Shown piece by piece: positions 3,462 through 52,004 of a stretch of 52,004 nt of DNA. The translations under genes and the position numbers were made by a program. Numbering within the stretch: position 1 is the stretch's first letter; every line of letters starts with the position of its first letter. The notes under the pieces are model-generated. The model searched no databases. It was not told the DNA's origin and saw only the letters and a program-made list of their open reading frames with translations. The DNA is from Acidimicrobiia bacterium (GTDB lineage Bacteria > Actinomycetota > Acidimicrobiia > IMCC26256 > BP-133), in contig JBIOYN010000289.1 of assembly GCA_044870155.1 (NCBI GenBank), positions 1 to 52,004 on the forward strand. The letters run 5' to 3'.

Positions 3462-3466
3462 GAAGG

Positions 3467-29002: not shown

Positions 29003-29020
29003 GGTGCCGATGCAACATTT

Positions 29021-33188: not shown

Positions 33189-33196
33189 CGGGACCC

Positions 33197-35357: not shown

Positions 35358-35361
35358 GCCG

Positions 35362-36765
35362 GTGGTGATCCGCCGCCTGGCCCGCGCTGTCGACGACCGC
35401 CTGGGGGCGGCCCGCTTCGCCAACGCCGCCGTCAACAAGATCTTCCCCGACCACTGGTCGTTCATGATCGGCGAGATCGCCCTCTACTGCTTCGTCGTCC
35501 TGGTGGCCACCGGGGTGTTCCTCACCTTCTTCTTCGAGGCGTCGTCGCGAGAGGTCGTCTACCACGGCCCCTACCAGGCGCTGCGGGGCGTGGAGATGTC
35601 CGCCGCCTACCGCTCCAGCCTCGAGCTCAGCTTCGAGGTGCGCGCCGGGCTGGTCATGCGCCAGATCCACCACTGGGCGGCGCTGGTGTTCCTGGCCGCC
35701 CTCGTCGTCCATCTCATGCGGGTGTTCTTCACCGGCGCCTTCCGCCGCCCCCGGGAGCTCAACTGGCTGGTGGGCGTGACCCTCCTGGTGCTGGCCATCG
35801 TCAACGGCTTCCTCGGCTACTCCCTGCTCGACGACCTCCTGTCGGGCACCGGCCTGCGGGTGGCGTGGTCCATCGCCCTGTCCGTGCCCGCGCTGGGCCC
35901 GGCGGTGGCCTTCGCCTTCTTCGGCGGCGAGTTCCCCGACCCCGCCACCATTCCCCGCTTCTTCGTGCTCCACGTCCTGTTGGTGCCCGCCCTGATCGTG
36001 GGGCTGCTCTCGGCCCACCTGGCCATGGTGTGGCGCCAGAAGCACACCCAGTTCAAGGGCCCGGGGCGCAGAGAGGACAACATCATCGGCTCGCGCCTGT
36101 GGCCCGCCTACGCCATGAAGTCCACCGGCCTGTTCCTGGTGGTGACGGCGGTGCTGTGCGCCCTGGGCGGCCTGGCCCAGATCAACCCCATCTGGATCTA
36201 CGGGCCTTTCCGCACCCAGTTGGCCACCACCGCGGCCACGTCGGCGTCCCAGCCCGACTGGTACATGGGCTGGGTCGACGGCGCCTTGCGGCTCATGCCC
36301 GCCTGGGAGATCCGGGCCTTCGGCTACACCGTGCCCAACCCCTTCTTCCCCGGCGTGCTCCTGCCCGGCCTGACCTTCGGCGCCATGTACCTGTGGCCCT
36401 TCCTGGAGGCCCGCTTCACCGGCGACCGGTCGGCTCACAACCTGTTGGACCGGCCCCGGGACGCTCCGCTGCGCTCGGCCGTGGGAACGTCGGTGTTCGC
36501 CTTCTACGTCGTGCTCTTCCTGGCCGGGAGCAACGACATCCTGGCCTCGCTCCTCCAGGTGGCGCCCGAGTCGATCACCACCGCCTTCCGGGTGCTGGTC
36601 TTCGTGCTGCCGGCGGGGGTGTTCTGGTTCACCCGCCGGGTGTGCCGGGAGCTGCGCCGGCGGGCGGACGGCGGCCCGCCCGAGCCGCCCGTCCACCGGG
36701 TGGTGCGGACGCCGGCGGGGGGCTACGGCGTCGAGGACCGCGTCGAGGCTGGCCCTGCCGCTTGA
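35362..36765 (+). CDS. qcrB: cytochrome bc1 complex cytochrome b subunit
   Basis: 467 aa. Cytochrome b N- and C-terminal helices (FPDHWSFMIGEIALYCF, RQIHHWAA, heme His residues). Confidence 0.9.
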   Translation: MVIRRLARAVDDRLGAARFANAAVNKIFPDHWSFMIGEIALYCFVVLVATGVFLTFFFEASSREVVYHGPYQALRGVEMSAAYRSSLELSFEVRAGLVMRQIHHWAALVFLAALVVHLMRVFFTGAFRRPRELNWLVGVTLLVLAIVNGFLGYSLLDDLLSGTGLRVAWSIALSVPALGPAVAFAFFGGEFPDPATIPRFFVLHVLLVPALIVGLLSAHLAMVWRQKHTQFKGPGRREDNIIGSRLWPAYAMKSTGLFLVVTAVLCALGGLAQINPIWIYGPFRTQLATTAATSASQPDWYMGWVDGALRLMPAWEIRAFGYTVPNPFFPGVLLPGLTFGAMYLWPFLEARFTGDRSAHNLLDRPRDAPLRSAVGTSVFAFYVVLFLAGSNDILASLLQVAPESITTAFRVLVFVLPAGVFWFTRRVCRELRRRADGGPPEPPVHRVVRTPAGGYGVEDRVEAGPAA

Positions 36766-38996: not shown

Positions 38997-39046
38997 CAGG
39001 CGCCTCCACCGGAGACGAGGCCGGCGATTGCGATGCTACCCATGAA

Positions 39047-39448
39047 TCAGAGACGGGCCCGGGAGGACTCCGCCGCCAGACCCGCCGCCGCCAGCAGCAG
39101 CAGCACCAGACCGGGGACGGCCAGCCAGCGGCTGAACACGCCGAAGAAGGCGATGATCGCCGCCCCTCCCCCCATGACCACCGGCCACGGGCTGCGGGTG
39201 GGGAACACCCCGACCTCGCCGGCCCCCTCGGCCGGGGTGGCCTCCGGGTCGTCCTCGGGCCGGCCGCCCGTCCGCCGGGCCTGGAGGAACAGGTAGGCGC
39301 CGAGGAACAGGAGCGCCATGACGGTGGCCAGGAGGGCGATGGCCCCGCCGTGCTCGTGCGCCGCCATCCAGTAGATCGCCGTCCAGGGGGCCAGGAACAC
39401 CCCCAGCCCCAGCATGACGACCGCCGCCGACTTCACGCCGCCCCGCAT
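39047..39448 (-). CDS. ctaF: cytochrome c oxidase subunit 4 (actinobacterial CtaF)
   Basis: 133 aa with 4 TM helices. The central RPEDDPEA...GAGEVGVFPTRSPWP matches the RPED...GE.GFF...S.WP signature of CtaF as I remember it from mycobacterial CtaF. Confidence 0.8.
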   Translation of the reverse strand: MRGGVKSAAVVMLGLGVFLAPWTAIYWMAAHEHGGAIALLATVMALLFLGAYLFLQARRTGGRPEDDPEATPAEGAGEVGVFPTRSPWPVVMGGGAAIIAFFGVFSRWLAVPGLVLLLLAAAGLAAESSRARL

Positions 39449-39451
39449 TCT

Positions 39452-39489
39452 GTGAGGTTTCTGCCAGCAATTGCTGGCAAAAGCCTCAC
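39452..39489. promoter_or_regulatory. 38-nt palindrome with a perfect 18-bp core TGCCAGCAATTGCTGGCA, between ctaD and ctaF
   Basis: Read directly: GTGAGG-TTTC-TGCCAGCAATTGCTGGCA-AAAG-CCTCAC. The outer 6-bp arms are also complementary. It ends 3 nt upstream of the ctaF ATG on the minus-strand mRNA. Confidence 0.5.
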
Positions 39490-39509
39490 GAGTTCCGGTG
39501 GCATGCCCG

Positions 39510-41135
39510 TCACCCTCCGTCCTGGGGGGCGTGGCGGGCGTCGAAGGCGGGGCGCTCGGAGCGGATGGGCGGGAGCTCGACGAAGTTGAGGGGGGGCGGG
39601 GGCGAGGTGGTGGCCCACTCCAGGGAGTAGCCGCCCCAGGGGTCGGCGCCGGCCGGCGCGCCCCGGCGGCGGGACCGGGCCACGTTCACCAGGAAGAGCA
39701 CGATGGCGAGGACGGACAGGACGTGGCCCAGGCTGGAGAACAGGTTCAGGTCCTCGAAGCCCTGGCCCCTCGGATAGTCGGCGATGCGCCGGGGCATCCC
39801 CCGCAGGCCGAGCAGGTGCTGGGGGAAGAAGGTGAGGTTGAACCCGGCGAACATGAGCCAGAACTGGGCCTTGCCCAACCCTTCGGACAGCCGGTGGCCG
39901 GTGAACTTCGGGTACCAGAAGAACAGGCCGGCGAAGAGGCCGAACAGGGCGGAGCCGAAGAGCACGTAGTGCATGTGGGCGACCACGAAGTACGTGTCGT
40001 GGACGTGGACGTCGAAGGGGACGGCGGCCAGCATCGGCCCGGTCAGGCCGCCGACCAGGAACACGACGAGGAAGCCGGTGGCGTAGAGCATGGGGGTGTC
40101 GAAGCGCAGGCGTCCGCCCCACATGGTGGCGACCCAGCCGAAGATCTTCACCCCGGTGGGGACGGCGATGAGCATGGTCGTCCCGGCGAAGAACGGGTTG
40201 TTGACGGCGAAGGTGGCGAACATGTGGTGGCCCCAGGTCGTCACCGAGTAGGCGCCGATGGCGAGGGTGCCGAGCACGAAGGCCTTGTAGCCGAAGAGGG
40301 GCTTGCGGGAGAAGACGGGGATGACCTCGGTGACCACGCCGAAGTAGGGCAGGGCCACGATGTAGACCTCGGGATGGCCGAAGAACCAGAACAGGTGCTG
40401 CCACAGGATGGGCATGGGCTCGCCGGCGCGGGCCTCGAAGAAGTGGGTCCCGAGGCGCCGGTCGGTGAAGAGCATGGCCAGGGCGCCGGTCACCACCGGG
40501 AAGGCGAGCAGGATGAGCAGGCTCACCACCACCATGTTCCAGGTGAAGATGGGCATGCGGAACAGGGTCATGCCCGGCGCCCGCAGTCCGATCACGGTGG
40601 TGACCAGGTTGACGGCGGTGAGCACGCTGGCCACCCCCGTGAGCATGAGGCCGGTGATCCACAGGTCGCCGCCCACGCCGGCGGAGTAGACGCTGTTGGA
40701 CTCGGGGGCGTAAGCCGTCCAGCCGAAGTCGGCGGCGCCGCCGGCGGTGAGGAACCCGGAGAGCATCACCACACCGCCGCCGACGAAGAGCCAGTAGGAC
40801 AGGGCGTTGAGGCGGGGGAAGGCCATGTCGGGGGCGCCCACCTGGAGGGGCACCAGGTAGTTGGCCAGGCCGGCGGCCATGGGCACGGCGAAGAGGAACA
40901 TCATGATGCTGCCGTGCATCGTGAAGAACTCGTTGTAGCGCTGGGCGGAGAGGACCTGCGTCCCGGGCTCGGCCAGCTCGGCCCGCATGAAGCTGGCCAG
41001 GATGCCGCCGGCCAGGAAGAAGCCGAAGGCGGTGACCATGTAGAGGATGCCGATCCGCTTGTGGTCGGCGGTGGAGAACCACTCCACGAGCGGTGCTGGG
41101 CGCGCTTCGACCTCGGCAACACCCGCGATTGCCAT
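39510..41135 (-). CDS. ctaD: cytochrome c oxidase subunit I
   Basis: 541 aa. Canonical heme-copper oxidase subunit I sequence (WFFGHPEVYI, HHMF, VVAHMHYVLFG). Confidence 0.95.
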   Translation of the reverse strand: MAIAGVAEVEARPAPLVEWFSTADHKRIGILYMVTAFGFFLAGGILASFMRAELAEPGTQVLSAQRYNEFFTMHGSIMMFLFAVPMAAGLANYLVPLQVGAPDMAFPRLNALSYWLFVGGGVVMLSGFLTAGGAADFGWTAYAPESNSVYSAGVGGDLWITGLMLTGVASVLTAVNLVTTVIGLRAPGMTLFRMPIFTWNMVVVSLLILLAFPVVTGALAMLFTDRRLGTHFFEARAGEPMPILWQHLFWFFGHPEVYIVALPYFGVVTEVIPVFSRKPLFGYKAFVLGTLAIGAYSVTTWGHHMFATFAVNNPFFAGTTMLIAVPTGVKIFGWVATMWGGRLRFDTPMLYATGFLVVFLVGGLTGPMLAAVPFDVHVHDTYFVVAHMHYVLFGSALFGLFAGLFFWYPKFTGHRLSEGLGKAQFWLMFAGFNLTFFPQHLLGLRGMPRRIADYPRGQGFEDLNLFSSLGHVLSVLAIVLFLVNVARSRRRGAPAGADPWGGYSLEWATTSPPPPLNFVELPPIRSERPAFDARHAPQDGG

Positions 41136-41199: not shown

Positions 41200-41430
41200 T
41201 CAGCGGCCGGCCGGCTCCAACGGGGACTCGAGGCTGGCGAAGGCGTCGACCACCTCGCCCAGCAGGTGGCGGCGCAAGCGGGCGAACAGCAGCGCCTGCT
41301 CGTCCGGTGAGGTGGCGGCCAGCAGTCTTCCCAGATCGCTGGTCTCGGGGATGGAGAGCTCCACCTCGGATTCCCCCGAGCTCCAGCCGTACAGCCTGAC
41401 CGTCACCTCAACCGGCGGTGTAACCCCCAC
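41200..41430 (-). CDS. hypothetical 76-aa protein downstream of the APH-fold kinase
   Basis: High GC3. GTG start without a clear RBS. No recognisable motif. Confidence 0.35.
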   Translation of the reverse strand: MGVTPPVEVTVRLYGWSSGESEVELSIPETSDLGRLLAATSPDEQALLFARLRRHLLGEVVDAFASLESPLEPAGR

Positions 41431-41505
41431 GGTTTCGACGATATTCGCAGCAACCTGAAAGCTCGGTGAGAATCCTTCAGGTGTTGCCCGGGGTTCGCCC
41501 TGCGG

Positions 41506-42528
41506 TCACCCGGGGGGCACCGGGAGTTCCCCCGACATCCACTCCTCGCACTGTTCCAGCCACGCCGGGGCGAAGCTCGGATCGGCCACCGGCTTCACCA
41601 CCAGCTTGTAGTAGAGGATCTCGAGGAAGGTGCGGGCCAGGTAGGCCGGGAGCAGCTCCACCCCGCGGCCGGCGGTGCCGTACCCGGCGAGGAAGGCCTG
41701 GTTCCACGGCGCGATGCGCTCGAAGGAGCCCGTGCGCACCCACGACATGGTCAGGCACTGGCCAAGGAAGTGGGCCAGGTCCCGGGCCGGGGGGGCGAGG
41801 GCATGACGGTCGAAGTCGATGACCGTCGTCCGCCGGCTGCCGACGTAGATGTTCTTGGGCTGGTAGTCGCCGTGGGTGATGACCAGGGAAGAGCCACCGG
41901 CGACCTCCAGGGCGGAGGCGGCGGCCTCGGCCACCGCCGAGACGCGCCCGGCCAGGTTGGGATGGGCGTCGGCCAGGGCGGAGGCGTAGCTCGTGAGCTT
42001 GTCCGTCTCGAAGCGGGACGGCAGCGGCCCGGTCGCCGACCCGGGGGCGGCGGCGTGGAGCTTGGCCAGCCAACGACCGGCGGCGCGGACCCGGGAGATG
42101 CCCCCTTCGGGGGCGGGAAGGTGGTCGTAGAGCGGATGCCCGCCGGCCCGGCCCTGGAGGAGGACCTTGGTCTCCGGGATCCAGGCGATCGGCTCGGTGA
42201 TGCACAGCGGATGGTCGTCGGAGAAGCCCCGGGCCCACAGGTGGCGCATGAGCTCGAACGTGCCCGCCCCGCCACCCCGGTAGTAGGCCTTGCCGATGAC
42301 GATCTTGAGCACGGACGTCGTGCTTCCGGTGTCCTCGTAGCTCACCCGGTAGCTGACCACCGGGCGGTGGCGCGACGCCTGGAGGACCCGGCCGTCGCAG
42401 CCGGTGAGTCGCAACCCCTCGCCGGCTACGGCCGCCAGGACCTCGGTGACGTCGCCGGCCTCCACCGGGGCGCCGTCCCCCAGCCGATCGGGCCCGCGTG
42501 ACGCAGATTTGTTGACCGCCATCCCCAT
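41506..42528 (-). CDS. APH/CotS-fold phosphotransferase, catalytic motifs intact (K0)
   Basis: 340 aa from ATG at 42528 (or 42522). Beta3 Lys in VLKIV. Brenner motif THGDYQPKNIYV (HxDxxxxN) and metal-binding VIDFD. The upstream 99 codons of the listed ORF run into the divergent gene and are rejected. Confidence 0.8.
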   Translation of the reverse strand: MGMAVNKSASRGPDRLGDGAPVEAGDVTEVLAAVAGEGLRLTGCDGRVLQASRHRPVVSYRVSYEDTGSTTSVLKIVIGKAYYRGGGAGTFELMRHLWARGFSDDHPLCITEPIAWIPETKVLLQGRAGGHPLYDHLPAPEGGISRVRAAGRWLAKLHAAAPGSATGPLPSRFETDKLTSYASALADAHPNLAGRVSAVAEAAASALEVAGGSSLVITHGDYQPKNIYVGSRRTTVIDFDRHALAPPARDLAHFLGQCLTMSWVRTGSFERIAPWNQAFLAGYGTAGRGVELLPAYLARTFLEILYYKLVVKPVADPSFAPAWLEQCEEWMSGELPVPPG

Positions 42529-42623
42529 CCCCGAAACCGTTGAGAAACCTGCGGGCCCCCACCACTTGTCTCTCTTGGCCCGCCCAGTTTGAATCAGCGG
42601 GGCGAAATGGGTCAAGTGCGGCT

Positions 42624-42641
42624 TTTGTCGGGATTTGTCGG
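42624..42641. promoter_or_regulatory. direct repeat TTTGTCGG-GA-TTTGTCGG (10-bp phasing) in the divergent K0/sulfotransferase intergenic region
   Basis: Read directly. It lies in a 133-nt spacer of lower GC than the flanks. Confidence 0.25.
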
Positions 42642-42661
42642 AAAAGCGGCAGGAGTGGGCG

Positions 42662-43270
42662 GTGGCCGAAGAGAATGTCTCCGTGGGGACGCAGCCGACG
42701 ATCGGGGATGAGATCGCGGTGGTCGCCGGGCTGCCGCGCTGTGGCACCTCGATGATGATGCGCATGCTGGAGGCGGGCGGCCTCCCCGTCCTGGTGGACG
42801 GCGTGCGCCGGCCCGACGAGGACAACCCCCGCGGCTACTACGAGTTCGAGCGGGTCAAGCAGCTCAAGGTGGACAAAGCCTGGCTGCCCGAGGCCCGGGG
42901 CCGGGTGGTGAAGATGGTCTCCGCGCTGCTGCCCGAGTTGCCGGGGGGCCACCACTACCGGGTCGTGTTCATGGAACGGGACATGGCCGAGATGCTGGCG
43001 TCCCAGCAGGCCATGCTGGCCCGCCAGGGTGAAGCCCCTGACGACCGGCCGGTGGAGCAACAGGTGGCCGCCTTCTCGGGCCACGTCGCCTCGCTCTTCG
43101 CCTGGCTCGACCGCCAGCCCAACTTCGCCGTGCTCCGGGTCAGCTACAACGAGATGCTGGACGACCCCCGGAGCCAGATCGACCGGGTGAACGGGTTCCT
43201 GGGGGGGACGCTCGACACCGCCGCCATGGTCGCCGTCGTCGACCACGCCCTCTACCGGCAGCGGGCATGA
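42662..43270 (+). CDS. PAPS-dependent sulfotransferase family protein
   Basis: 5'-PSB loop GLPRCGTSMMMRML and a 3'-PB-like FMERDMAEMLAS. I chose GTG at 42662 because GGAG lies 6 nt upstream; the listed start at 42635 is a TTG without an RBS. The stop overlaps the next start (ATGA). Confidence 0.8.
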   Translation: MAEENVSVGTQPTIGDEIAVVAGLPRCGTSMMMRMLEAGGLPVLVDGVRRPDEDNPRGYYEFERVKQLKVDKAWLPEARGRVVKMVSALLPELPGGHHYRVVFMERDMAEMLASQQAMLARQGEAPDDRPVEQQVAAFSGHVASLFAWLDRQPNFAVLRVSYNEMLDDPRSQIDRVNGFLGGTLDTAAMVAVVDHALYRQRA

Positions 43271-44343
43271 CGGGCGGCGCCGGCGGGCCTCCGCTCCCCC
43301 GGCGCCGGGACCGGGCCGTCCTGGCCGTCGATGGCGTGGCCCGGGTCTGGGACCTGGGGCGCTGGGAGGACTGGCGCCGCACGCCCAAGGGCTCCACCAA
43401 CACGTCGTACTTCGTCACCACCGACCGGGATCGTTTCGTGGTGCGGGTCTCCAACCCCCGCAAGACCGAGGCGGGCATGGACCAGGAGGTGGCGCTGCTC
43501 GAGCATCTGCGGGCCCGGGGCTACCCGGCGCCGGCCGTCGTCCCCACGCGGACGGGCGAGCCCTGGGCGCTCGTCGACGGCGCCCTGTGCCTGGTGACCA
43601 AGCGGATCCCCGGGGCCTTCGGCGACCTGGCCGATCCCTGGCACCTGGCCGAGTCGGCCCGGGCCCTGGCCCGCTTCCACCGGGAGGGCCGTGACCTGCC
43701 CGAGGGGGCCCGGCCGGCGCTGGGCTCGGAGATGGGGCTCCTGGCCGGGGGGCATGGACTCGTCCAGCGGGCGGGCGAGCTCGTCGCCAAGCTCACCGGG
43801 GTCGAGAGCCGGGATCGCTTCGCCCGGGCGTGGGAGGTGATCGAGCCCCGCTTCGCCGCCGCCGGCCCCTTGCTCTCGGCCGACGGCGAGCTGCCCCGCA
43901 TGGTCACCCACGGCTCGCTCGGCGTCTCCGCCGTGCTGTTCGAGGGGACCCGGCTCACCGGCGTCCTCGACTACGAGCGGGCCGCCCACGAGGTTCGGGC
44001 CCTCGACGTCGCCTACACCCTGCGGGCCCTCACCCGGCGTCCCAAGGAGGACACCGGGGCCTTCGACCTCCCACGTCTCCGCACGTTCATGGTGGCTTAC
44101 CAGAATGAGGAGCCCCTCGCCCCCGGTGAAGCCGAGCGGCTGGCCCAGGTCATGCGGGCTCAGCGCCTGCTCAAGGTGGCGGGCAAGGCGGGCAACCTCG
44201 TGGCCAAGCACACCGTCGTGGCCCAGGAGGAGAAGGACGCCCTGAAGCTGATCGAGACCCTCGAGCTCGAGGTGCCCAGGCTGGCCTGGCTCGAGGATCA
44301 CGAAGCCGAGCTCCTCGACGCCTGCGCCGGCCACGTCGTCTGA
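43267..44343 (+). CDS. APH/homoserine-kinase-II-fold protein with degenerate catalytic loop (P1: HGS, beta3 Arg)
   Basis: The fold is recognisable (LEHLRARGYPAP, VLDYERA, RALDVAYTL). HxDxxxxN is replaced by THGSLGVSA and the beta3 Lys by Arg (FVVRVS). Confidence 0.8.
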   Translation: MTGGAGGPPLPRRRDRAVLAVDGVARVWDLGRWEDWRRTPKGSTNTSYFVTTDRDRFVVRVSNPRKTEAGMDQEVALLEHLRARGYPAPAVVPTRTGEPWALVDGALCLVTKRIPGAFGDLADPWHLAESARALARFHREGRDLPEGARPALGSEMGLLAGGHGLVQRAGELVAKLTGVESRDRFARAWEVIEPRFAAAGPLLSADGELPRMVTHGSLGVSAVLFEGTRLTGVLDYERAAHEVRALDVAYTLRALTRRPKEDTGAFDLPRLRTFMVAYQNEEPLAPGEAERLAQVMRAQRLLKVAGKAGNLVAKHTVVAQEEKDALKLIETLELEVPRLAWLEDHEAELLDACAGHVV

Positions 44344-44347
44344 CCCT

Positions 44348-44384
44348 GCGTTCCTGCCGGGCGACGGGTGCCCGTCAGGAACGC
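44348..44384. terminator. 37-nt hairpin between convergent genes (copy A of a repeated element)
   Basis: GCGTTCCTGCCGGGC-gacgggt-GCCCGTCAGGAACGC: a 15-bp stem with one mismatch. It sits 4 nt after the P1 stop and 12 nt after the sulfatase-like stop. The same arms recur at 51068-51104. Confidence 0.55.
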
Positions 44385-44396
44385 CGGACCGGCAGG

Positions 44397-46166
44397 TCAG
44401 GCGAGGTAGCCGAGCTTGCGGAGCTGGGCTTCGGTCTCGGGATCGAGCTCGACGAGGGCGCCCGGGGCCTGGAACGAGGCCGTGCGCTCGGCCCAGGCGT
44501 CGAGGCGACGCTCGAGGGCGGCAGCGAGGTCGGGTTCGGCGTCGACGAGGTTCTCGGACTCGGCGGGGTCGGCCACGTGGCGGTAGAGCTCACGTTCCCG
44601 GGCCACGTACTGGCCGGCGCGGACCATGGCCAGCACCTCTTCCCGCTGCCACTTCCTCGAGCTGTCGTGGCGGTGCACGAGACGCGTCTGGGTGGGGTCG
44701 ATGCGCACGGGGCGACCCATGACCACGACGGTGACGGCGCCGCCGCCGGCGTCGACCACGGACTCCGCGGGGCCTTCGAGCTTGGACTCGCCGCCGGGCT
44801 TGCGCCACATGACGCTGCGGGCGCGCCGCCCGCCTCCGCTCGGGCCCGGCGGGTCCAGGATGACGTTGATGCGGTCGCCGGGCACCAGCTCGGCCAGGGG
44901 GAAGGGGCCCTTGTCCAGGCCGACGAGGTCGGTGGTGGCATCGACGGTGAAGTCGAAGCCCAGGACGGTGACGGCCCCGTCCGATGGGTCGACGCGCTCC
45001 ACCAGCCCCAGGAGCTTGTCCGGCCCGGGGATGCCGATGGTCACCTTGGTGGGGAGAAAACCGCCGCCCACCGCCTGTCCTTTGATCTCCAGGGGGGTGC
45101 CCGGAGTCAGGTCGGACAGGCGGGCGGGCGGGGCCTTCGAGACGTGGAACGTCTCGATGAAGTGGTGCTCGGCGGTGGTGACCGACCGGCTGTAGCGCAC
45201 CCGCTTGAGCAGTTCAGAGAACGCCACCTCCCCGTTGGCGGCCGGGCCGGCACCCGCGCCCAACCAGGGCAGCAGGCTGCAGCCGGGGACGTCGGGCACG
45301 GGCACGCCCGCCACCTCCAGGAGTGTGGGCAGCAGATCGATGTGTGACACCGGCGGCGCCGGAGTGTTGCCGGCGCCCACGCCGTCGGACCGGCGGACGA
45401 CGAGCGGCACCCACACCAGCTGGCGGTACAGGCTCTGGCCGTGGCTCAGCATCACACCGTGCTCGTTGAGCTCCTCACCGTGGTCGGCGGTGAGGACGAC
45501 CCAGGTGTCCTCCCCACGTCCCGCCGCCTCCAGGAACGCCAGCAGGCGGCCGATGTGGGCGTCGGCCCGGCGGACGCCGGCGGCGTAGTAGCTGAGGAGG
45601 GTCTCGGGCCCGGCGTCGACCACGGCGGCATCGACACCCCGCTCGACCAGCGGGCGGGTGGGGAAGAGCTCGGCGGGCAGCGGGCTGTGCACGTCCATCA
45701 GGTGCACGTAGGCGGCCCAGGGGCCGTCCCCGGCCTCGCCCAGCCAGGCTTCGAAGTCGTCGACCACGGCGGCGCCGTCGGTGGTGGTCCGGAACTCGAC
45801 ATGGCCGAAGCCGGCGGTGATCCCGAACTCCGGCTTCAGGTAGGCATTGCCGGCCACGAAGGCGGCGGTGGCGAAGCCGGCCCCGCCCAGGCAGCCGGCC
45901 AGGGTGGGCAGGTCGGGATGGAGAGCGGTGAGCTTGGTGCCCTCACCCCCCGGGCGGGGCCCGCCCATCACGTGCTGGCTGGGATAGAGCCCGGTCATGA
46001 TCGACGCCACCGACGGGTGGGTCCACGACGCCTGGCTGACGGCGTTGGCGAAGCGCACACCCCCGGCCGCCAGGCGGTCCATGTGGGGGGTGCCCCGATC
46101 GGTGCCGGCGTAACAGCCCAGGTGGTCGGCCCGCAGGGCGTCGACACAGATGATCAGGAAGTTCAC
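44397..46166 (-). CDS. alkaline-phosphatase-superfamily 'sulfatase-like' hydrolase/transferase with Thr at the nucleophile position and a C-terminal beta-rich extension
   Basis: Metal and catalytic motifs ICVDALRADHLG, SWTHPSVASIMTG and LTADHGEELNEHG. The C/S-x-P-x-R signature reads T-H-P-S-V. About 230 extra C-terminal residues carry repeated V..G....V/D patterns. The GTG start overlaps the upstream stop (GTGA). Confidence 0.85.
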   Translation of the reverse strand: MNFLIICVDALRADHLGCYAGTDRGTPHMDRLAAGGVRFANAVSQASWTHPSVASIMTGLYPSQHVMGGPRPGGEGTKLTALHPDLPTLAGCLGGAGFATAAFVAGNAYLKPEFGITAGFGHVEFRTTTDGAAVVDDFEAWLGEAGDGPWAAYVHLMDVHSPLPAELFPTRPLVERGVDAAVVDAGPETLLSYYAAGVRRADAHIGRLLAFLEAAGRGEDTWVVLTADHGEELNEHGVMLSHGQSLYRQLVWVPLVVRRSDGVGAGNTPAPPVSHIDLLPTLLEVAGVPVPDVPGCSLLPWLGAGAGPAANGEVAFSELLKRVRYSRSVTTAEHHFIETFHVSKAPPARLSDLTPGTPLEIKGQAVGGGFLPTKVTIGIPGPDKLLGLVERVDPSDGAVTVLGFDFTVDATTDLVGLDKGPFPLAELVPGDRINVILDPPGPSGGGRRARSVMWRKPGGESKLEGPAESVVDAGGGAVTVVVMGRPVRIDPTQTRLVHRHDSSRKWQREEVLAMVRAGQYVARERELYRHVADPAESENLVDAEPDLAAALERRLDAWAERTASFQAPGALVELDPETEAQLRKLGYLA

Positions 46167-47203
46167 GAGCCTCCTCCCGATCGCTCCACGGCGGCCAGCA
46201 GCTCATCGCCCTGGCCCAGGGATCGGACCCGGGCCAGCTCCAGGGTGATCTTGCGCAGGTCGTTGGCCGACAAGGGGTCGCCGGCCAGGAGCCGGGCGTA
46301 GCGGCCCAGCGCCCGCTTGAGCCGCTTGGCCAGCAGCAGCAGGGGGATGGCCTCCAGCTCGGCCGGCGCCAGGGGGGAGACGTCCTGGTAGGCGTCCACG
46401 AAACGGGCGGCCACGGCCCGGTCGAGGTGCACCTTGTAGTCGGGCGACGCCGGGTCGCCGTAGACCTTGGCGAAGTCGTGGACGGCGACGGCCACGTCCA
46501 GCGCCCGGGCCTCGACGTGGGCGCTGTCGAAGTCGAGGACGACCAGGAGCCGGTCCCCGTCGAACAGGGCGCTCCCCCGCCGGCAGCCGCCGTGGATGGT
46601 GGTGAGGGGGAGCGAGCGGTACAGGTCCTCCAGCCGGCGCCGGACGGCCCTGCCCTCGGCCAGGGCGAAGCGCAGCGGGGCGGCCAGTCCGTCGGGGACG
46701 TTGGCCAGGAACCGCTCCTCGGCGGGGACAGCGGCCAGCCGCTCGGCCAGGGCCACGGGCACGAGCGCGGCGTCGGGGGTGGGGACGGAGGCCGAGAAGC
46801 CCTCGACCAGCCCGTGGTAGCGGGCCAGCGCCGCCGCCACCGCCTCCGCCTGGCCGGGAACCCCGGCGGAGGCGGGCTGCCCGGCCACGAAGCGGGCCAT
46901 CCGCCACAGCCAGCCCTCGACGAGGGCGCAGGGATCGCCATCCACCGTGGGGACGTACTCGGGGGCCGGGAACCCCCGGGCCCGCAGGTGGGCCACCAGC
47001 TCGTGCTCGAAGCGGACGGCCTCGGGCGTCTTGGCCCGGTAGGAGCGCCGGAGCACGAAGGACCCTCGCGTCGTGGTCAGGCGCCAGTGCTGGCTCTTGC
47101 CCAGCGGCAGGGCCTCGACGTCCTGCCACCCGCCGGCGTCGAAGGTGCGCTCCAGCGCCGCACGGGGCAGGCCGGCCCCCGGGGTGAGGTCGAGCTCAGG
47201 CAT
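46163..47203 (-). CDS. APH/homoserine-kinase-II-fold protein with degenerate catalytic loop (P2: HGG, beta3 Arg)
   Basis: 346 aa from ATG at 47203. Paralogue of P1 (VAHLRARGFPAP; VLDFDSA; RALDVAVAV). The catalytic loop reads TIHGGCRRGSALF and beta3 reads FVLRRS. Confidence 0.8.
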   Translation of the reverse strand: MPELDLTPGAGLPRAALERTFDAGGWQDVEALPLGKSQHWRLTTTRGSFVLRRSYRAKTPEAVRFEHELVAHLRARGFPAPEYVPTVDGDPCALVEGWLWRMARFVAGQPASAGVPGQAEAVAAALARYHGLVEGFSASVPTPDAALVPVALAERLAAVPAEERFLANVPDGLAAPLRFALAEGRAVRRRLEDLYRSLPLTTIHGGCRRGSALFDGDRLLVVLDFDSAHVEARALDVAVAVHDFAKVYGDPASPDYKVHLDRAVAARFVDAYQDVSPLAPAELEAIPLLLLAKRLKRALGRYARLLAGDPLSANDLRKITLELARVRSLGQGDELLAAVERSGGGS

Positions 47204-48254
47204 CGGCGGGCAGCCGGCCCTCGATGAGCGCCGAGAAGTCGGCCCGGTAGGTCTGCACCGCCCGGTCGTCCTCGGGGCTGTCGCCATTCTTCAGCTTGCG
47301 GTTCATGGAGTGGAACACGAAGCGGGCCCAGTGGAAGCGGAGGTTGGCCAACCAGGCGGCGGCGTCGGGCACCGCCGCCCGGTAGGCGTCGAGGAAGGCG
47401 TCAGTGGCGGCCTCCACCTCCTCAGCGCGGCGGCCGTCGCCCGTCAGCTGGCGCCGGAGCCGGTGCAGGAACTCGGCCGTGTCGCGGGCGGGGTCGGACG
47501 GCCGGGAGCGGTCGAGGTCGATCACCGTCGTCGCCCTGTCGTGCCCGGCTTCGGCGCCCAGGAACACGTGGATGGGGCGGTACTGGCCGTGACTCTGGAC
47601 GGCCAGCCCGTCGACGGTGTCGAGGGCCAGGGCCTCGAGCTGTTCGATCATGCGCAGGGCGGGCGGGACGCGCTCGGGTCGCTCGGCCGCCACCTTGGCC
47701 AGGCGCCGGGTGAGAGACAGGATCTCGGTGGAGACCAGCATCGAGTGGGGTTTCCCGATCCGCAGCGGGGTGGAGTGGAGCCGCCCCAGCCAGGTGGCCG
47801 CCTCCCGGACGGCGGTGAGGCGGGCGGCGGGATCGTCGCCGCCCAGCACGTCGGCCACCGATGGCCCCCGCGCCTCGGCGCACACCAGCAGGTCGAGGTC
47901 ACCCATCCAGGCCAGGGGCTCCACCACCTGGTAGGCGGCACCGGGCCCGAAGCCGCCCTCCTCCCGCAGGCGGACGAGCTTGTCGTGGATGGCCCGCCCT
48001 TCGGTGCCGGGCGGGAAGAACTTGGCGAACACGGCCCGGCCCCCGTTGCGGCGCACTTCCACCGTGGCCGCCCCGGTGGAGTCGAGCTGGATGACGCGGA
48101 CGCCCCAGTCAGCCTGGTGGCCGTTTCCGTTCCCGGAGGGGCCGCCGTTGGCCACCTCCACCAGCGGCCGGAAGTGGGCCTCCAGGAACTCCGTTTCCGA
48201 GGCGGCGGCCACCCGCCGCCCCAGCTCGGCCTTCACGTCCTTGGTGATGCTCAT
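47196..48254 (-). CDS. APH/CotS-fold protein with degenerate catalytic loop (P3: HGQ)
   Basis: 352 aa from ATG at 48254, with AAGGAG 5 nt upstream. Paralogue of K0 (VIDLD, ARDTAEFL). The catalytic loop reads SHGQYRPIHVFL and the beta3 Lys is retained (VFAKFF). Overlaps P2 by 8 nt. Confidence 0.8.
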   Translation of the reverse strand: MSITKDVKAELGRRVAAASETEFLEAHFRPLVEVANGGPSGNGNGHQADWGVRVIQLDSTGAATVEVRRNGGRAVFAKFFPPGTEGRAIHDKLVRLREEGGFGPGAAYQVVEPLAWMGDLDLLVCAEARGPSVADVLGGDDPAARLTAVREAATWLGRLHSTPLRIGKPHSMLVSTEILSLTRRLAKVAAERPERVPPALRMIEQLEALALDTVDGLAVQSHGQYRPIHVFLGAEAGHDRATTVIDLDRSRPSDPARDTAEFLHRLRRQLTGDGRRAEEVEAATDAFLDAYRAAVPDAAAWLANLRFHWARFVFHSMNRKLKNGDSPEDDRAVQTYRADFSALIEGRLPADA

Positions 48255-50070
48255 CGGTCTCCTTTGGATCGGCAAGGGCGTCACCGCGCGACAGGGCGAC
48301 CAGCTCGGCGTAGCTGCCGCCCAGCGCACACAGCTCCTCGTGGCTGCCCCGTTCCACCACCCGCCCGTCCTCCAGGTAGGCGATGAGGTCGGCCCGGCGC
48401 ACGGTGGACAGCCGGTGGGCGATGACGATGGTCGTCCGGCCCTCCATGAGGCGCTCCACGGCGTCGAGGACGACGCGCTCGGAGCGGATGTCGAGCCCGG
48501 AGGTGGGCTCGTCGAGGATGAGGACGGGCGACTGGCGCACCAGGGCCCGGGCGATGGCCAGGCGCTGGCGCTGCCCGCCCGAGAGCGTCTCGCCCCGCTC
48601 CTCGACCAGGGTGTCGTAGCCCAGGGGCAGGGCGGAGACGAAGTCGTGGGCGTTGGCCGCCCGGGCGGCGGCCTCGATCTCGGCCCGGGTGGCGTCGGGC
48701 CGCCCGTAGGCGATGTTCTCGGCCACCGTCGCCCGCACCAGCACCGACTCCTGGGGCACCACCGCCACCTGGGCCTGGAGGCTCTCCAGGGTGAAGCTGC
48801 GGATGTCGGCCCCGTCGATGAGGACCGCCCCCGAGTCGGGGTCGTACAGCCGGGGCACCAGGCCCGCCAGCGTCGTCTTGCCCGCCCCGGTGGCGCCCAC
48901 CAGGGCCAGCACCTGGCCGGCGGGAACTTCGAGTTCGACTTCGTGGAGGACGGGCCGGCCGGGCACGTAGGAGAACGTCACGCCCGAGAAGCGGACGGTG
49001 CCGCTCAGGCGGGGGGCGGGCCGGGCGCCGGGCAGGTCGGTGACGGCGAGCGGCGTGGCCAGGATCTCGGCGATGCGCTCGGCCCGCACGCTGGTGCGAC
49101 TGGCCTTGGCCGCCAGGCGGGACAAGGCCCGGGTGGGTCCGTAGAAGTCGCGCAGGTAGGAGGTGAACACCAGCAGCTGGCCCAGCTCCAGGCGCCCGGC
49201 GCGCACCTCGTGGGCCCCCAGAGCGAGGAGGGCGGCCAGGCCCAGCGCCGGCACCACCCCGAGCCAGGACGAGAACGCCGACTCGGTGCGGGACAGGGCC
49301 AGGTTGGCCTCCAGCACCTCGCCGCCGGCCGACTCGAACCGCTCGGTCTCATGCTTCTCCCGGCCGAACACCTTGACCAGGCGCATGGAGGACAGGACCT
49401 CGGAGGTCAGCGACGTCATGTCGCCTTCCAGGTTGCGGGCCCGGACCTCGGCGGCCTTGATGCGGCGGCGGAAGCGGGTGTTGGTGACGGCCATGAGCGG
49501 GGTCATGACCAGCAGCACCAGCGACAGGCGCCAGTCGAGGGTGAAGGTGATGACCACCATGCCGATGCCGAGCAGGCCGGAGGACACGGCCTCGAGGAGG
49601 TTGTCGGTGACCAGCGCCTGGACGGGCTCGGCGTCGCGGGTCACCCGGGTCAGCAGCTCGCCGGTCTGGGCCCGGTCGTGGAAAGCGAGCGACAGGCGCT
49701 GGAGGTGCTGGTAGAGGGCGACGCGGATCCGGAAGGCGACCTTCTGGCCCACGATCTGCATGAGGTAGCTGCGGATGAAGTCGACGGCGGCTTCGAGGGC
49801 GGCGATGGCGATGACGGCCGCCACCACCACCAGCACGAGGAATTCGAAGCTGGCGTCGGTCCGGGGCTTGCCCAGCACCTCGTCGACCAGGAAGGCGAGG
49901 GGCCAGGGCTTGGCCAGCCGGAAGGCGGTGCTGGACAGCACGAGCACCAGGGCCAGCACCAGCGTGGGCAGGTGGGGCCGGGCGAAGGGGCCGAAGACCC
50001 GGAACGCCTGGCGCAGCCCGAACCGGGCGGAGGGCCGCTCCCCCGCGGGCCGGGAGTCGTTCCCGCTCAT
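48109..50070 (-). CDS. ABC exporter, fused transmembrane and ATP-binding domains (MsbA-type half-transporter)
   Basis: 653 aa from ATG at 50070, which forms an ATGA overlap with the upstream stop. Six TM helices. Walker A GATGAGKTT, signature LSGGQRQR, Walker B VLILDEPTS, H-loop IAHRL. No in-frame stop occurs until 48109, so about 48 codons overlap P3. Confidence 0.9.
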   Translation of the reverse strand: MSGNDSRPAGERPSARFGLRQAFRVFGPFARPHLPTLVLALVLVLSSTAFRLAKPWPLAFLVDEVLGKPRTDASFEFLVLVVVAAVIAIAALEAAVDFIRSYLMQIVGQKVAFRIRVALYQHLQRLSLAFHDRAQTGELLTRVTRDAEPVQALVTDNLLEAVSSGLLGIGMVVITFTLDWRLSLVLLVMTPLMAVTNTRFRRRIKAAEVRARNLEGDMTSLTSEVLSSMRLVKVFGREKHETERFESAGGEVLEANLALSRTESAFSSWLGVVPALGLAALLALGAHEVRAGRLELGQLLVFTSYLRDFYGPTRALSRLAAKASRTSVRAERIAEILATPLAVTDLPGARPAPRLSGTVRFSGVTFSYVPGRPVLHEVELEVPAGQVLALVGATGAGKTTLAGLVPRLYDPDSGAVLIDGADIRSFTLESLQAQVAVVPQESVLVRATVAENIAYGRPDATRAEIEAAARAANAHDFVSALPLGYDTLVEERGETLSGGQRQRLAIARALVRQSPVLILDEPTSGLDIRSERVVLDAVERLMEGRTTIVIAHRLSTVRRADLIAYLEDGRVVERGSHEELCALGGSYAELVALSRGDALADPKETDEHHQGREGRAGAAGGRRLGNGVPGGPLPAAGGGGQRRPLRERKRPPG

Positions 50071-52004
50071 GCCGGTGCCACCCTGTCCTGCTCGGGCCGG
50101 CGGTGGACGGGCCGGACGGCGCCGGCCGGCACGGTGCGCAGGTCGATCTCGGCCGGCCGGGAACGGTCCCCCACCCCGAGGCGGAACCCGAACGAGGGCT
50201 GCCACGCCGCCACCCGCAGCACCAGGACGTGTCCGGCGGGGCGGGAAGGCGGGGTCTCCCAGACGAGCGGCTGACCCGGGGGCAGGTCGACCCACACCTC
50301 CGCCGCCCCGGCGGCGAACCCCCGCCGGCGGCCGTCGTGCACGGTGGTGACGGTGGCCCGCCCCTCCCGCAGCAGCACCAGGTAGTCGGGTGAGAGGCCG
50401 AGTTCCACCCGGAAGCGCTCGGTGGCCTCGGCCAGGTCGTAGGCCACGTCCAGGTGGTCGGCGTCGGGGCCGAGCCGCACGCGCTTGGTCGACCCCAGGA
50501 GCGGCGAGCCGGCCTCGACGTTGCGCAGCTCCGCCTCCACCGCTCCATCGCCCAGGAGGCGGGTGGCCGCCACCTCCCAGCGCTCGTTCTCGTGACCCAC
50601 GTCGGCCAGGGCGCCGGGGTGGTTGGCCGGGACCTCCATGTAGCGGTTGACGTCCTCCTGCCAGTTCCAGTCGTCCGCCGGGTTGCCCACCACCAGGGCG
50701 CCGGCCGACAGGTCGTAGAGGGCCACCAGACGGGCGCCGAAGCGGGGCGAGAGGACGGCGAAGAGCCGGTCGTTGGCCAGCACCACCTCGACCTCGCCGT
50801 CGTCGTCGAGATCGGCGCTCCACACCCGGGGCCCGCCGTTGCCCTGACGGGCGCCGCATGACGCCGGGAACCGGGCGGCGGCCACGGTGTGGAGGGCGGC
50901 CCGGGCGTGGGAGGCGGCGGCCCGGGCCCAGGGCGCAGGCTCGTCGGGGCTCGCCCCCAGCCCGTGCCAGGCCGTCTCGTAGGCGGCGGCCATGAGCTGC
51001 GTCCAGGCCAGGTCCCACAGCCGGGAGGCGGCCCGGGCCCCGGCGCCGTTGCGGGACGGGTGTTCCGGCGTTCCTGCCGGGCACCTGTCGCCCGTCAGGA
51101 ACGCCGGTGGAATGCCGGCCGGGGTGGCGGGGCCGGGGGGGCCGGCCGACAGGGTCGCTTCCAGGCGTTCCAGGTGGGCCCGGTAGGGGGCGTAGAGCGC
51201 CGACGCCCACCAGCGCTGGTAGTCGTCGCCGGCGCCGCCGGCGGCCAGCTCGTAGAACGTGCCGGGCTCCACCGCCCGGGTGTCGGACGGCGGATGGGCG
51301 GCCAGCCATGGGCCCACCAGCACGGTGTCCACCTTGTCGGTGGAGGCCAGCCAGCGCAACAGGCCCTCGTAGGCGTCGACCCCGGACCGGCGCCACGCCC
51401 CGCTGGTCCACGGACCCACCGCCGCCGTCTTTTCCAGGTCGTCGGCGTAGAGCGCCAGGGTCCCCCGACCGGCGGCACGCGCCGCGCCGAGGGTGTCGAA
51501 CAGGAGCCGCCACGCCGCCATGTCCCTGGGCGGCACGGCGTAGCGCAGGTCTCCGGAGATGGGCACAGCCACCAGGCCGCCGGCCCCGGCCACCCGCCAC
51601 GGTCGCAGATGGGCGCCGTCCCGCTGCCGCCCCGGACCGTCCCCGTTGGCGCCGGCGTCGCCGGGGACCGGAGGGGCGGGGAGCAGGGGCGGCGGGCCGG
51701 CGGCGGAGGCGGGCAGCGGCGAACGGCCCGGCGCCGTCTCCCGGTCGAACCCGGCCCGGTGCGCCGCCGGGTAGGCCAGCCGGTCGTCGAGGAGCACGTA
51801 GCGGTACCCACCGTTGGCCAGCCCCGGATCGCCCACCACCGGCGCCAGGGCGGCCGTGTCCCACACCCGCTCCGGCACCCAGAAGCCGGACACCTCCGGC
51901 GCCGCCACCCCCAGGTGGCGCGTCAGCAGGTCGAGCTCCTCGGCCACCTGTCGCCGGTTGTGCTCGGCGCTGAAGAGCGGCATGACGGGCTGGGACCAGG
52001 CGCT
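50067..52004 (-). CDS. GH57-like alpha-glucan-active enzyme (alpha-amylase/4-alpha-glucanotransferase-type, with DUF1925/1926-like C-terminal half), 5'-truncated by the window edge
   Basis: Regions resembling the GH57 conserved regions: GFWVPERVW (nucleophile Glu), LYADDLEKT (acid/base Asp) and AAYETAWHG. The reading frame stays open upstream of the listed Met to position 52004 (SAWSQPV-MPLF), so the N-terminus lies outside the window. Confidence 0.7.
   Translation of the reverse strand, partial: SAWSQPVMPLFSAEHNRRQVAEELDLLTRHLGVAAPEVSGFWVPERVWDTAALAPVVGDPGLANGGYRYVLLDDRLAYPAAHRAGFDRETAPGRSPLPASAAGPPPLLPAPPVPGDAGANGDGPGRQRDGAHLRPWRVAGAGGLVAVPISGDLRYAVPPRDMAAWRLLFDTLGAARAAGRGTLALYADDLEKTAAVGPWTSGAWRRSGVDAYEGLLRWLASTDKVDTVLVGPWLAAHPPSDTRAVEPGTFYELAAGGAGDDYQRWWASALYAPYRAHLERLEATLSAGPPGPATPAGIPPAFLTGDRCPAGTPEHPSRNGAGARAASRLWDLAWTQLMAAAYETAWHGLGASPDEPAPWARAAASHARAALHTVAAARFPASCGARQGNGGPRVWSADLDDDGEVEVVLANDRLFAVLSPRFGARLVALYDLSAGALVVGNPADDWNWQEDVNRYMEVPANHPGALADVGHENERWEVAATRLLGDGAVEAELRNVEAGSPLLGSTKRVRLGPDADHLDVAYDLAEATERFRVELGLSPDYLVLLREGRATVTTVHDGRRRGFAAGAAEVWVDLPPGQPLVWETPPSRPAGHVLVLRVAAWQPSFGFRLGVGDRSRPAEIDLRTVPAGAVRPVHRRPEQDRVAPA
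51068..51104. repeat. copy B of the 37-nt hairpin element, located inside the GH57-like coding sequence
   Basis: GCGTTCCTGCCGGGC-acctgtc-GCCCGTCAGGAACGC. Both 15-nt arms, plus the following CGG, are identical to copy A at 44348-44387. The loop is 6 of 7 the reverse complement of the copy A loop. Confidence 0.8.

Follow-up and report, generated by a model that had tools for sequence, protein, structure and literature searches.

A candidate glycan modification and export locus in an Acidimicrobiia bacterium joins a GH57 enzyme, one intact and three pseudokinase-like APH-fold proteins, and an ABC exporter

Pairs of a glycosyltransferase (GT) and an enzyme from family 57 of the glycoside hydrolases (GH57) build defined cytoplasmic alpha-glucans, as exemplified by the mycobacterial cluster for 6-O-methylglucose lipopolysaccharide (MGLP). 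In other systems, a terminal phosphate added by a kinase can gate the export of a glycan through an ATP-binding cassette (ABC) transporter, for instance by WbdD and Wzt of Escherichia coli O9a. We know of no resolved route by which cytoplasmic alpha-glucans reach the actinobacterial cell surface. Here, we describe a locus at positions 41,200 to 52,004 of a 52,004-nucleotide stretch of DNA from an Acidimicrobiia bacterium (GenBank assembly GCA_044870155.1, contig JBIOYN010000289.1; hereafter "the window"). It encodes a GH57 enzyme, an ABC exporter, and four APH-fold proteins (the kinase K0 and the pseudokinase-like P1, P2, and P3), together with an alkaline phosphatase (AP)-superfamily enzyme, a 3'-phosphoadenosine-5'-phosphosulfate (PAPS)-type sulfotransferase, and a small open reading frame (ORF), orf76. 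Most likely, we see here the form that a widespread, uncharacterized machine for glycan modification and export takes in Acidimicrobiia. Open-access papers and bioRxiv, among them a review from 2024 on the alpha-glucan enzymes of prokaryotes and a survey of the GH57 family, yielded no description of a GH57-APH-ABC cluster, and neither PADLOC nor the NCBIfam equivalogs describe one; the cluster is apparently undescribed so far, in agreement with an initial annotation of the same DNA, which had recognized no characterized pathway with this gene combination.

Conservation of the neighborhood carries the argument that the locus is a unit. Gene order is kept in independent metagenomic Acidimicrobiia contigs (L001, at 90% identity; L002, at 69%; and L082; L numbers denote loci), reading secreted BNR-like / GH57-ABC-P3-P2-AP > < P1-sulfotransferase / K0-orf76, and L083 and L164/L165 hold partial or rearranged versions. 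In L002, the gene beyond orf76 differs, which sets the block boundary after orf76. A wider scan used one genome per species with a GH57 alignment as the anchor, and the proteins of the window were mapped onto the 62 loci that have a close GH57. The core of GH57, K0, ABC, and P1 to P3 co-occurs in Actinomycetota, Chloroflexota, Acidobacteriota, and metagenome-assembled genomes labeled Deltaproteobacteria, and it is also present in Arthrobacter, Rubrobacter, and Sporichthyaceae; for Myxococcota, a GH57-K0 fusion protein alone is on record, without its locus. In cultured Actinomycetota (Pseudonocardia, Nocardioides, Pseudarthrobacter, Geodermatophilus, and Modestobacter), the block takes the form [GT5-GH57][K0][ABC][P1][P3][P2] and spans about 9.7 kb. 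Apparent clusters of further conserved flanking genes in these organisms consisted of shadow ORFs antisense to the core genes. Chance adjacency, the plain objection to the single unit that the initial annotation had proposed, is ruled out for the core by the order in independent metagenomes (69 to 90% protein identity) and by the presence of the core across phyla; the AP enzyme, the sulfotransferase, and orf76 are co-conserved with it within Acidimicrobiia.

Within these loci, the parts are associated in specific ways. K0 adjoins GH57 or is fused to it in 40 of 50 informative loci and lies elsewhere in the cluster in 6 more. The ABC gene was found in 35 loci, counting those with at least 7 kb downstream, and the pseudokinase genes track it: two or more pseudokinase-type APH genes accompany the ABC gene in 31 of the 35, as opposed to 0 of the 10 loci that lack it (Fisher test, 3e-7, which ignores phylogeny). 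Searches begun from P3 instead recovered GT5-GH57, K0, ABC, P3, and P2 in Arthrobacter sp. U41 (CP015732.1), and three APH genes, an ABC gene, and a gene for a protein tyrosine phosphatase (PTP)-like phosphatase on a Thermodesulfobacteriota contig that is cut upstream, before any GH57 position. A profile search with P3 against 1.84 billion representatives returned 108 proteins at an E value of ≤1e-30, many of them tandem two-domain P3-P3 proteins; an 861-amino-acid (aa) protein is a K0-P3 fusion, and a 1,054-aa protein joins a live K0-type domain to two dead P3-type domains. L002 encodes, at 21170-22247 and directly after orf76, a second ABC exporter of 1,017 aa with a fused C-terminal APH domain that reads HGY, i.e., without the catalytic Asp. 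Fusions therefore chain GT5, GH57, K0, and P3 to one another and, separately, an ABC exporter to a dead APH domain, a network that points to physical or functional coupling of the parts. Spore-forming Bacillota (L029, L033, L040, L043, L044, L048, and L049) have a different conserved block around K0-GH57, made up of a RIO-like small protein, GT4/GT5, K0, GH57, a HipA_2-like kinase, and another RIO-like small protein, with neither the ABC gene nor P1 to P3; its pairing of GT4 with an APH-fold protein recalls cotSA-cotS of Bacillus subtilis.

The last gene of the locus is cut by the end of the window, and its residues and relatives show its product to be a genuine member of GH57, from the 4-alpha-glucanotransferase-like branch; the relationship to GH57 proposed initially was right, and the qualifier in "GH57-like" can be dropped. 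This identification follows from PF03065 in its relatives, from its invariant catalytic residues, and from a profile match to a solved structure. Full-length relatives have 700 to 735 aa and carry PF03065, which is present in 119 of the 120 homologues listed for the window protein (identity of up to 90%) and scores E values of 3.7e-13 in L031 and 1.2e-17 in L014; the truncated fragment in the window does not reach the PF03065 threshold alone. The catalytic Glu of conserved sequence region 3 (CSR-3; E139 in the numbering of P0001) and the Asp of CSR-4 (D283) are invariant in 22 diverse GH57 sequences, and the family profile (alignment A1) matches the Thermococcus litoralis 4-alpha-glucanotransferase 1K1W, the closest solved structure, at an E value of 2e-26. 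The enzyme thus looks catalytically competent. In most Actinomycetota and in Rubrobacter, a GT5 "starch synthase" or glycogen-synthase-like domain with an intact KVGGL motif is fused to the N terminus of GH57 (1,169 to 1,177 aa), one relative is a GH57-GT2 fusion, and 25 of the 120 best homologues have a C-terminal APH domain, which is of the K0 type in Acidobacteria. The GT5-GH57 fusions make plausible, as an anabolic tie, the link to alpha-glucans suggested by the initial annotation; the chemistry itself we infer. The GH57 family survey (PMC6037648) describes uncharacterized bacterial "4-alpha-glucanotransferase-like" and "non-specified amylase" groups with complete catalytic machinery, among which the clade of the cluster probably falls; the words "kinase," "fusion," and "glycosyltransferase" do not occur in that survey, which gives no gene context.

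Four kinase-fold paralogues had been proposed at the outset. The fold holds for all four proteins, and a conventional kinase is predicted for K0 only. K0 has a beta3 Lys (Lys80), H219-G-D221 (41877..41851), Asn226, and IDFD (D238-F-D240; 41820..41809), and its beta3 Lys, HGD, Asn, and DFD are invariant or nearly so across 33 to 50 orthologue sequences; judged by these motifs, it is the sole catalytically intact member of the four. Its AlphaFold model (predicted local distance difference test [pLDDT] score of 90) matches APH-fold structures with a probability of 1.0. Template modeling (TM) scores of 0.5 to 0.64 indicate a generic APH fold, the best match being the class V lanthipeptide kinase LxmK, at 0.64. 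The structures matched by K0 and P3 include PsiK, Rv3168, corramycin kinase, LxmK, TvaE, and aminoglycoside kinases, joined by maltokinase for P3, and such generic matches give no clue to the substrate.

P1, P2, and P3 all score above the Pfam gathering score for APH, and they lack the catalytic Asp of a conventional kinase, with one P3-type exception. P1 and P2 belong to the homoserine-kinase-II/CotS-like branch, in which P1 matches PDB 2PPQ at an E value of 8e-13. In P1, HGS replaces HGD (from 43906) and Arg replaces the beta3 Lys, with H(G/A)S kept in 20 orthologues; in P2, the corresponding sequences are HGG.RRGS (from 46597) and RRS, and the motif is kept in 32 orthologues. P3 reads HGQ for HGD (from 47594) and retains Lys78 and IDLDRS. 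Of 46 aligned P3-type domains, 45 have HGQ, HGR, or HGS, the exception being L027 with HGD, and two Sporichthyaceae copies of the P3 type read AGQ. The second Asp motif (LDYE, LDFD, or IDLD) and many other positions are invariant in P1 to P3, including 47 invariant columns in 37 P3 sequences. The P3 model (pLDDT of 85) has the APH fold at a probability of 1.0, with a TM score of 0.57 to maltokinase 4U94. P1 to P3 are therefore predicted to be conserved kinase-fold proteins incapable of canonical phosphotransfer, not decaying genes. The four genes form two old pairs (K0-P3, 27% identity; P1-P2, 32%), as opposed to recent duplicates.

The ABC half-transporter of 653 aa has an MsbA/NdvA-like exporter architecture, with five transmembrane-like windows. 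It scores 481 bits against the MsbA equivalog TIGR02203, under the cutoff of 602 bits, and falls under the cutoffs of the other named exporter models as well; the glucan-exporter model gives an E value of 7e-112, also under its cutoff and lower than MsbA. The last ~49 codons of the gene overlap the start of P3 in another frame (48109-48254), and GC content at third codon positions (GC3) there follows the P3 frame. The resulting 146-nt overlap is found only in this strain and L001, and L002 has a 4-nt overlap and an ABC protein of 624 aa. The shorter L002 protein and the GC3 pattern suggest that the tail is a recent stop-codon shift shared with L001 and no functional extension.

Next to the pseudokinase genes lies the gene for the AP-superfamily enzyme, a protein of 589 aa that comprises a core domain, with the N-terminal metal-ligand Asp, and a C-terminal region. 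It was initially described as a Thr-type sulfatase-like enzyme; the Thr and the AP fold stand, and the sulfatase role does not. Thr occupies the formylglycine position (SWTHPS, 46028..46011), and Val replaces the Arg of CxPxR (T-H-P-S-V), so that the C/S-x-P-x-R motif is absent and a type I (formylglycine) sulfatase is ruled out. In an alignment to 4UPI and 4UPK of the sulfatase/phosphonate-monoester-hydrolase clade (E value of ~3e-21), the Thr falls on the nucleophile position of 4UPI. All cluster orthologues (Acidimicrobiia and Rubrobacter) keep SWT[HR]PS and the N-terminal CVDALRADH. An exact-sequence lookup of the window AP protein and of P0037 returned no record. In related clusters, other phosphoesterase folds occur: an enzyme of the nucleotide pyrophosphatase/phosphodiesterase (NPP) type adjoins the AP gene in Rubrobacter, a secreted calcineurin-like (Metallophos) enzyme belongs to the cluster of the "bacterium HR25" lineage, a secreted beta-propeller phytase gene overlaps P1 in L164/L165, and L167 has a PTP/dual-specificity phosphatase (DSP)-like enzyme in its cluster. 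Because Thr replaces formylglycine and unrelated phosphoesterases take the place of this protein elsewhere, the AP enzyme is probably a phosphoesterase. The five unrelated phosphoesterase folds around one kinase likewise suggest that the addition and removal of phosphate would be the core chemistry of the cluster.

Besides the core, the locus holds three lineage-specific additions, namely, the AP enzyme, the sulfotransferase, and orf76. The sulfotransferase scores 46.3 bits against Sulfotransfer_3 (cutoff, 27) and 36.6 bits against Sulfotransfer_1 (cutoff, 22) and has a 5'-phosphosulfate-binding (PSB)-like loop, GLPRCGTS, at 42728..42751; its sequence matches in the PDB are marginal. An in-cluster sulfotransferase occurs only in Acidimicrobiia loci (the window, L001, L002, L082, L083, and L164/L165), where it always adjoins P1, even after rearrangement. 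More than 500 metagenomic relatives at 53 to 73% identity lie nearly all outside this cluster. The initial inclusion of the gene in the locus is thus borne out within Acidimicrobiia and not as a core role; by its distribution, the sulfotransferase was recruited in this lineage, as a peripheral component, from a large family otherwise found elsewhere. A scan of that family (L082 to L161) found no conserved partner, save in three exopolysaccharide (EPS)-type loci and in two loci that have a Thr-type AP gene in the vicinity. In L087, L090, and L097, the sulfotransferase adjoins a Wzz-like chain-length protein and a second sulfotransferase; a Thr-type AP enzyme is encoded immediately upstream of the sulfotransferase in L084, and an AP-like gene lies ~3 kb upstream in L149. 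We could identify no characterized member of this ~200-aa family. The small protein encoded by orf76 has no Pfam, NCBIfam, or PADLOC match; its gene follows K0 at 75 to 97% identity in L001, L002, L082, and L165, was not found in other loci at an E value of ≤1, and is limited to the Acidimicrobiia version of the cluster.

None of the enzymes encoded in the window has a signal peptide or a transmembrane segment, which makes the AP enzyme, for one, cytoplasmic; signal peptides occur in several accessory proteins whose genes lie outside the window. Beyond the window end, the order seen in relatives continues with genes for a secreted BNR/Asp-box propeller and a two-component sensor; such propellers recur in Acidimicrobiia and HR25, and a HAMP-HisKA sensor adjoins the cluster in 8 loci. 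Cytoplasmic enzymes accompanied by accessory proteins with signal peptides fit an exported product. The secreted proteins that flank the Acidimicrobiia cluster (L001, 7473-9764 and 4074-5897; L165, 3634-6883) comprise as many as three paralogous BNR/Asp-box propellers and a 553- to 607-aa repeat protein with no Pfam match and clear internal repeats.

We tentatively prefer a reading in which K0 adds phosphate to a cytoplasmic glycan derived from an alpha-glucan, the glycan is exported, and the pseudokinases serve as accessory subunits. GH57, together with a GT where one is present, would build or remodel an alpha-glucan-derived oligo- or polysaccharide in the cytoplasm, and K0 would add a phosphate to it. 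P1 to P3 may keep a binding pocket without phosphotransfer; in an accessory, reading, or adaptor capacity, they would connect the ABC exporter with the tagged glycan or with the kinase. A phosphoesterase, here the Thr-type AP-superfamily protein, would later remove or transfer the phosphate, and in Acidimicrobiia, the sulfotransferase, translationally coupled to P1, could add sulfate as an extra decoration. A more specific proposal, which we regard as doubtful, is that the dead kinases constitute a new accessory module of ABC exporters: they would form a complex with the live kinase, read the phosphate-tagged alpha-glucan, and pass it to the transporter, after which the phosphoesterase would remove the tag. 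If true, this would be a previously unknown route for moving cytoplasmically made alpha-glucans, here also sulfated, across a monoderm membrane.

Several points weigh against this reading. We infer the substrate, its phosphorylation and sulfation, and the direction of transport, and exporter-fold ABC proteins sometimes import. The adaptor role of the pseudokinases is suggested by fusions and by a co-occurrence test that ignores phylogeny, in loci gathered from a GH57 anchor with two reciprocal checks from P3. K0 is not specifically sugar-kinase-like, since the peptide kinases LxmK and TvaE score equally. In this Acidimicrobiia lineage, there is no GT5 or other GT within 10 kb, so that GH57 may either remodel a glucan from another source or be purely degradative; neither PAPS-synthesis nor GT5 genes were found in the window. 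The AP enzyme is cytoplasmic, whereas the phosphoesterases of HR25 and L165 are secreted, and they may not be equivalent. A DUF5666 module that seemed common to the AP enzyme and the HR25 Metallophos protein was dropped, as the regions were subthreshold and direct BLASTP gave an E value of 1.1.

That GH57 degrades its glucan is the starting point of a rival explanation, which we consider unlikely: a catabolic or salvage locus, in which GH57 would degrade or disproportionate an intracellular or imported alpha-glucan, K0 would phosphorylate the released sugar in the manner of a maltokinase, and the ABC protein and pseudokinases would import the substrate or export an unrelated compound. The GH57 family includes amylases as well as 4-alpha-glucanotransferases, represented by the closest solved structure, and this lineage has no GT near the cluster; against that, fusions to biosynthetic GTs (KVGGL-bearing GT5, and GT2) recur in the same GH57 clade. 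The GH57-K0 fusions resemble the TreS-Mak fusions of the GlgE pathway, and P3 matches the maltokinase fold. However, K0 itself has no PDB sequence match to maltokinase (Mak/Pep2), Mak lies outside its top 50 fold matches, and TreS, GlgE, a sugar-binding protein, and importer-type ABC components are absent from every locus; K0 was accordingly rejected as a maltokinase. The accessory proteins, moreover, are secreted.

Quite unlikely, in our estimation, is an intracellular regulatory module, in which K0 and the pseudokinases would form a signaling complex that phosphorylates proteins and thereby controls GH57/GT5 storage-glucan metabolism, with the ABC gene and others only loosely linked. Pseudokinases usually act as allosteric regulators or scaffolds, K0-pseudokinase fusions exist, and the recurrent HAMP-HisKA sensor would suit such a module. 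Nevertheless, the ABC gene is one of the translationally coupled genes of the operon and goes together with the pseudokinases, some of the recurrent phosphoesterases are secreted, and most kinases in the APH branch of the fold act on small molecules.

The fold matches of K0 raise a further alternative, a locus resembling those for ribosomally synthesized and posttranslationally modified peptides (RiPPs), where K0 would phosphorylate Ser or Thr of a small precursor, for which orf76 is a candidate, the pseudokinases would be recognition subunits, and the ABC protein would export the product. LxmK gives the best TM score for K0 and TvaE scores well for both K0 and P3, yet fold scores do not discriminate among APH-fold enzymes, and the NCBIfam LxmK match to K0 is weak (E value of 8.7e-5; 21.8 bits against a cutoff of 315). 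Similarly, a conserved 76-aa ORF follows K0 and MsbA-like exporters are common in RiPP loci, but orf76 is confined to an Acidimicrobiia sublineage, whereas K0, P1 to P3, and ABC are always tied to GH57. Lyase, cyclase, protease, and RiPP recognition element (RRE) genes are absent from every locus, and K0-GH57 and GT5-GH57 fusions would make no sense in a peptide pathway, which renders this alternative very unlikely.

Resistance or self-protection, with an APH-type kinase inactivating an aminoglycoside-like or pseudo-oligosaccharide compound (e.g., an amylase inhibitor) for expulsion by the ABC pump, is hardly credible. In its favor, kinases of the APH fold and ABC exporters both count as classic elements of resistance, the fold matches include phosphotransferases for corramycin and aminoglycosides, an alpha-glucan-active enzyme shares the operon, and acarbose producers offer a parallel in their phosphorylate-then-export logic. 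However, genes that would make such a compound are absent nearby, no score comes close to an NCBIfam resistance model (APH(3') is far under its cutoff), the locus is chromosomal with stable synteny, and three strictly conserved dead kinases with GT5-GH57 fusions across phyla are unlike resistance cassettes. A known antiphage defense system was also considered and rejected, as PADLOC gave generic ABC-ATPase matches only. The remaining probability belongs to something else entirely.

The gene calls on which these considerations rest are summarized in Table 1. The G+C content of the window is ~72%, so spurious ORFs are plentiful. A GC3 frame plot nonetheless resolves a single frame per stretch from 39.5 to 52.0 kb, and together with the Pfam matches, it reproduces the gene set and strands called in the initial annotation; the gene overlaps given there were likewise confirmed by reading the junctions. 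A sigma-70 consensus scan, uninformative for this phylum, found no match. The G+C-rich hairpin in the convergent P1/AP gap (free energy of -38.1 kcal/mol; z score of -2.9 against shuffles) is likely a bidirectional terminator, although a terminator consensus scan did not call it because it has no T-tract.

Table 1. Features of the locus and their positions in the window
Feature	Position	Strand	Basis or remark
orf76, small acidic protein	41200..41430	-	GC3 of 0.90 in own frame; 75 nt downstream of K0
K0, APH-fold kinase	41506..42528	-	Pfam APH (PF01636), E 9.7e-15, above gathering score
K0 / sulfotransferase-P1 divergent intergenic region	42529..42661		presumed promoters; read in sequence
PAPS-type sulfotransferase, ~200 aa (202-211)	42662 (or TTG 42635)..43270	+	Sulfotransfer_3, Sulfotransfer_1
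P1, homoserine-kinase-II/CotS-like branch	43267..44343	+	Pfam APH, E 6.7e-22
G+C-rich hairpin, convergent P1/AP gap	44338..44402		likely bidirectional terminator
AP-superfamily enzyme, sulfatase-like core and ~260-aa C-terminal region	44397..46166	-	Pfam Sulfatase, E 1.9e-41; Phosphodiest, E 2.5e-13
P2, P1 paralogue	46163..47203	-	Pfam APH, E 8.4e-22
P3, K0 paralogue	47196..48254	-	Pfam APH
ABC half-transporter, MsbA/NdvA-like exporter architecture	48109..50070	-	ABC_membrane, E 3.6e-49; ABC_tran, E 1.4e-34
GH57, 4-alpha-glucanotransferase-like branch	50067->52004	-	cut by window end, ~82 N-terminal codons absent
GH57 motif, nucleophile WVPERVW	51881..51861
GH57 motif, acid/base YADDLEK	51449..51429
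GH57 motif, YETAWH	50981..50964
GH57/ABC junction			ATGA overlap; read in sequence
ABC/P3 junction			146-nt overlap; read in sequence
P3/P2 junction			8-nt overlap; read in sequence
P2/AP junction			GTGA overlap; read in sequence
Sulfotransferase/P1 junction			ATGA overlap; read in sequence

The cluster adjoins the respiratory genes qcrCAB, ctaF, and ctaD (33259-36765 and 39047-41135 of the window). In L001, a COX2 gene (3215-3937) is found at the opposite end of the cluster, so that cytochrome oxidase genes seem to enclose the ~17-kb block; the flanks of L002 differ from this setting. The window also encodes four separate GGDEF-EAL proteins for cyclic di-GMP turnover (12652-15429, 16915-18342, 27410-28954, and 36723-39035), of which two also have sensor domains of the PAS or GAF type. 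Further, it contains a gene for a kelch/galactose-oxidase-like protein of 917 aa that includes a GO-like E-set domain (30522-33275, minus strand), which is adjoined by a gene for an extracytoplasmic function (ECF) sigma factor (28955-29596).

A conserved operon that joins GT5/GH57, a kinase, and an ABC exporter is a concrete candidate for the delivery of alpha-glucans to the cell surface, and its core is present in culturable, tractable genera (Arthrobacter, Pseudarthrobacter, Nocardioides, and Modestobacter). One live and three dead APH-fold proteins that recur, partly fused, in four or more phyla would offer an unusually clear case of bacterial pseudokinases with a conserved job. In addition, the Acidimicrobiia sulfotransferase points to sulfated glycans in an uncultured soil lineage.

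Four described systems are the closest in logic, and the locus is a member of none of them. The TreS-Mak fusions of the GlgE pathway, like GH57-K0, join an alpha-glucan-active enzyme to an APH-fold sugar kinase; they differ in using GH13 instead of GH57, K0 shows no specific similarity to Mak, and GlgE and TreS are missing from the loci. The cyclic beta-glucan system (Cgs, NdvA/ChvA, and CgmB/OpgB) shares a synthase in which GT and GH domains are fused, an ABC half-transporter of the MsbA-like kind, and a "sulfatase-domain" enzyme of the AP superfamily, the phosphoglycerol transferase CgmB/OpgB, that handles a phospho-substituent. Its glucan is beta, whereas an alpha-glucan is proposed here; it has neither kinases nor pseudokinases; and the AP enzyme of the present locus is cytoplasmic and soluble.

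The MGLP cluster (Rv3030-Rv3037c) comes closer on the synthetic side, as a GT and a GH57 make a cytoplasmic alpha-(1->4)-glucan that clustered tailoring enzymes decorate. Its GH57, however, is of the branching-enzyme branch, methyl and acyl groups serve as decorations, the product is retained in the cytoplasm, and the cluster has no APH-fold kinase, pseudokinases, or ABC exporter. For export, the nearest parallel is E. coli O9a, where WbdD and Wzm/Wzt act on a lipid-linked polymannose with another ABC architecture and a carbohydrate-binding module in place of a pseudokinase; the present locus differs also in having no polyprenol-phosphate GT genes and in that tag reading is only proposed. What the two would have in common is the principle: in O9a, the end of the glycan is phosphorylated by a kinase-fold domain, and ahead of export, the tag is read by a dedicated recognition module on the ABC transporter; by analogy, the same logic may apply to K0, the pseudokinases, and the ABC-APH fusion.

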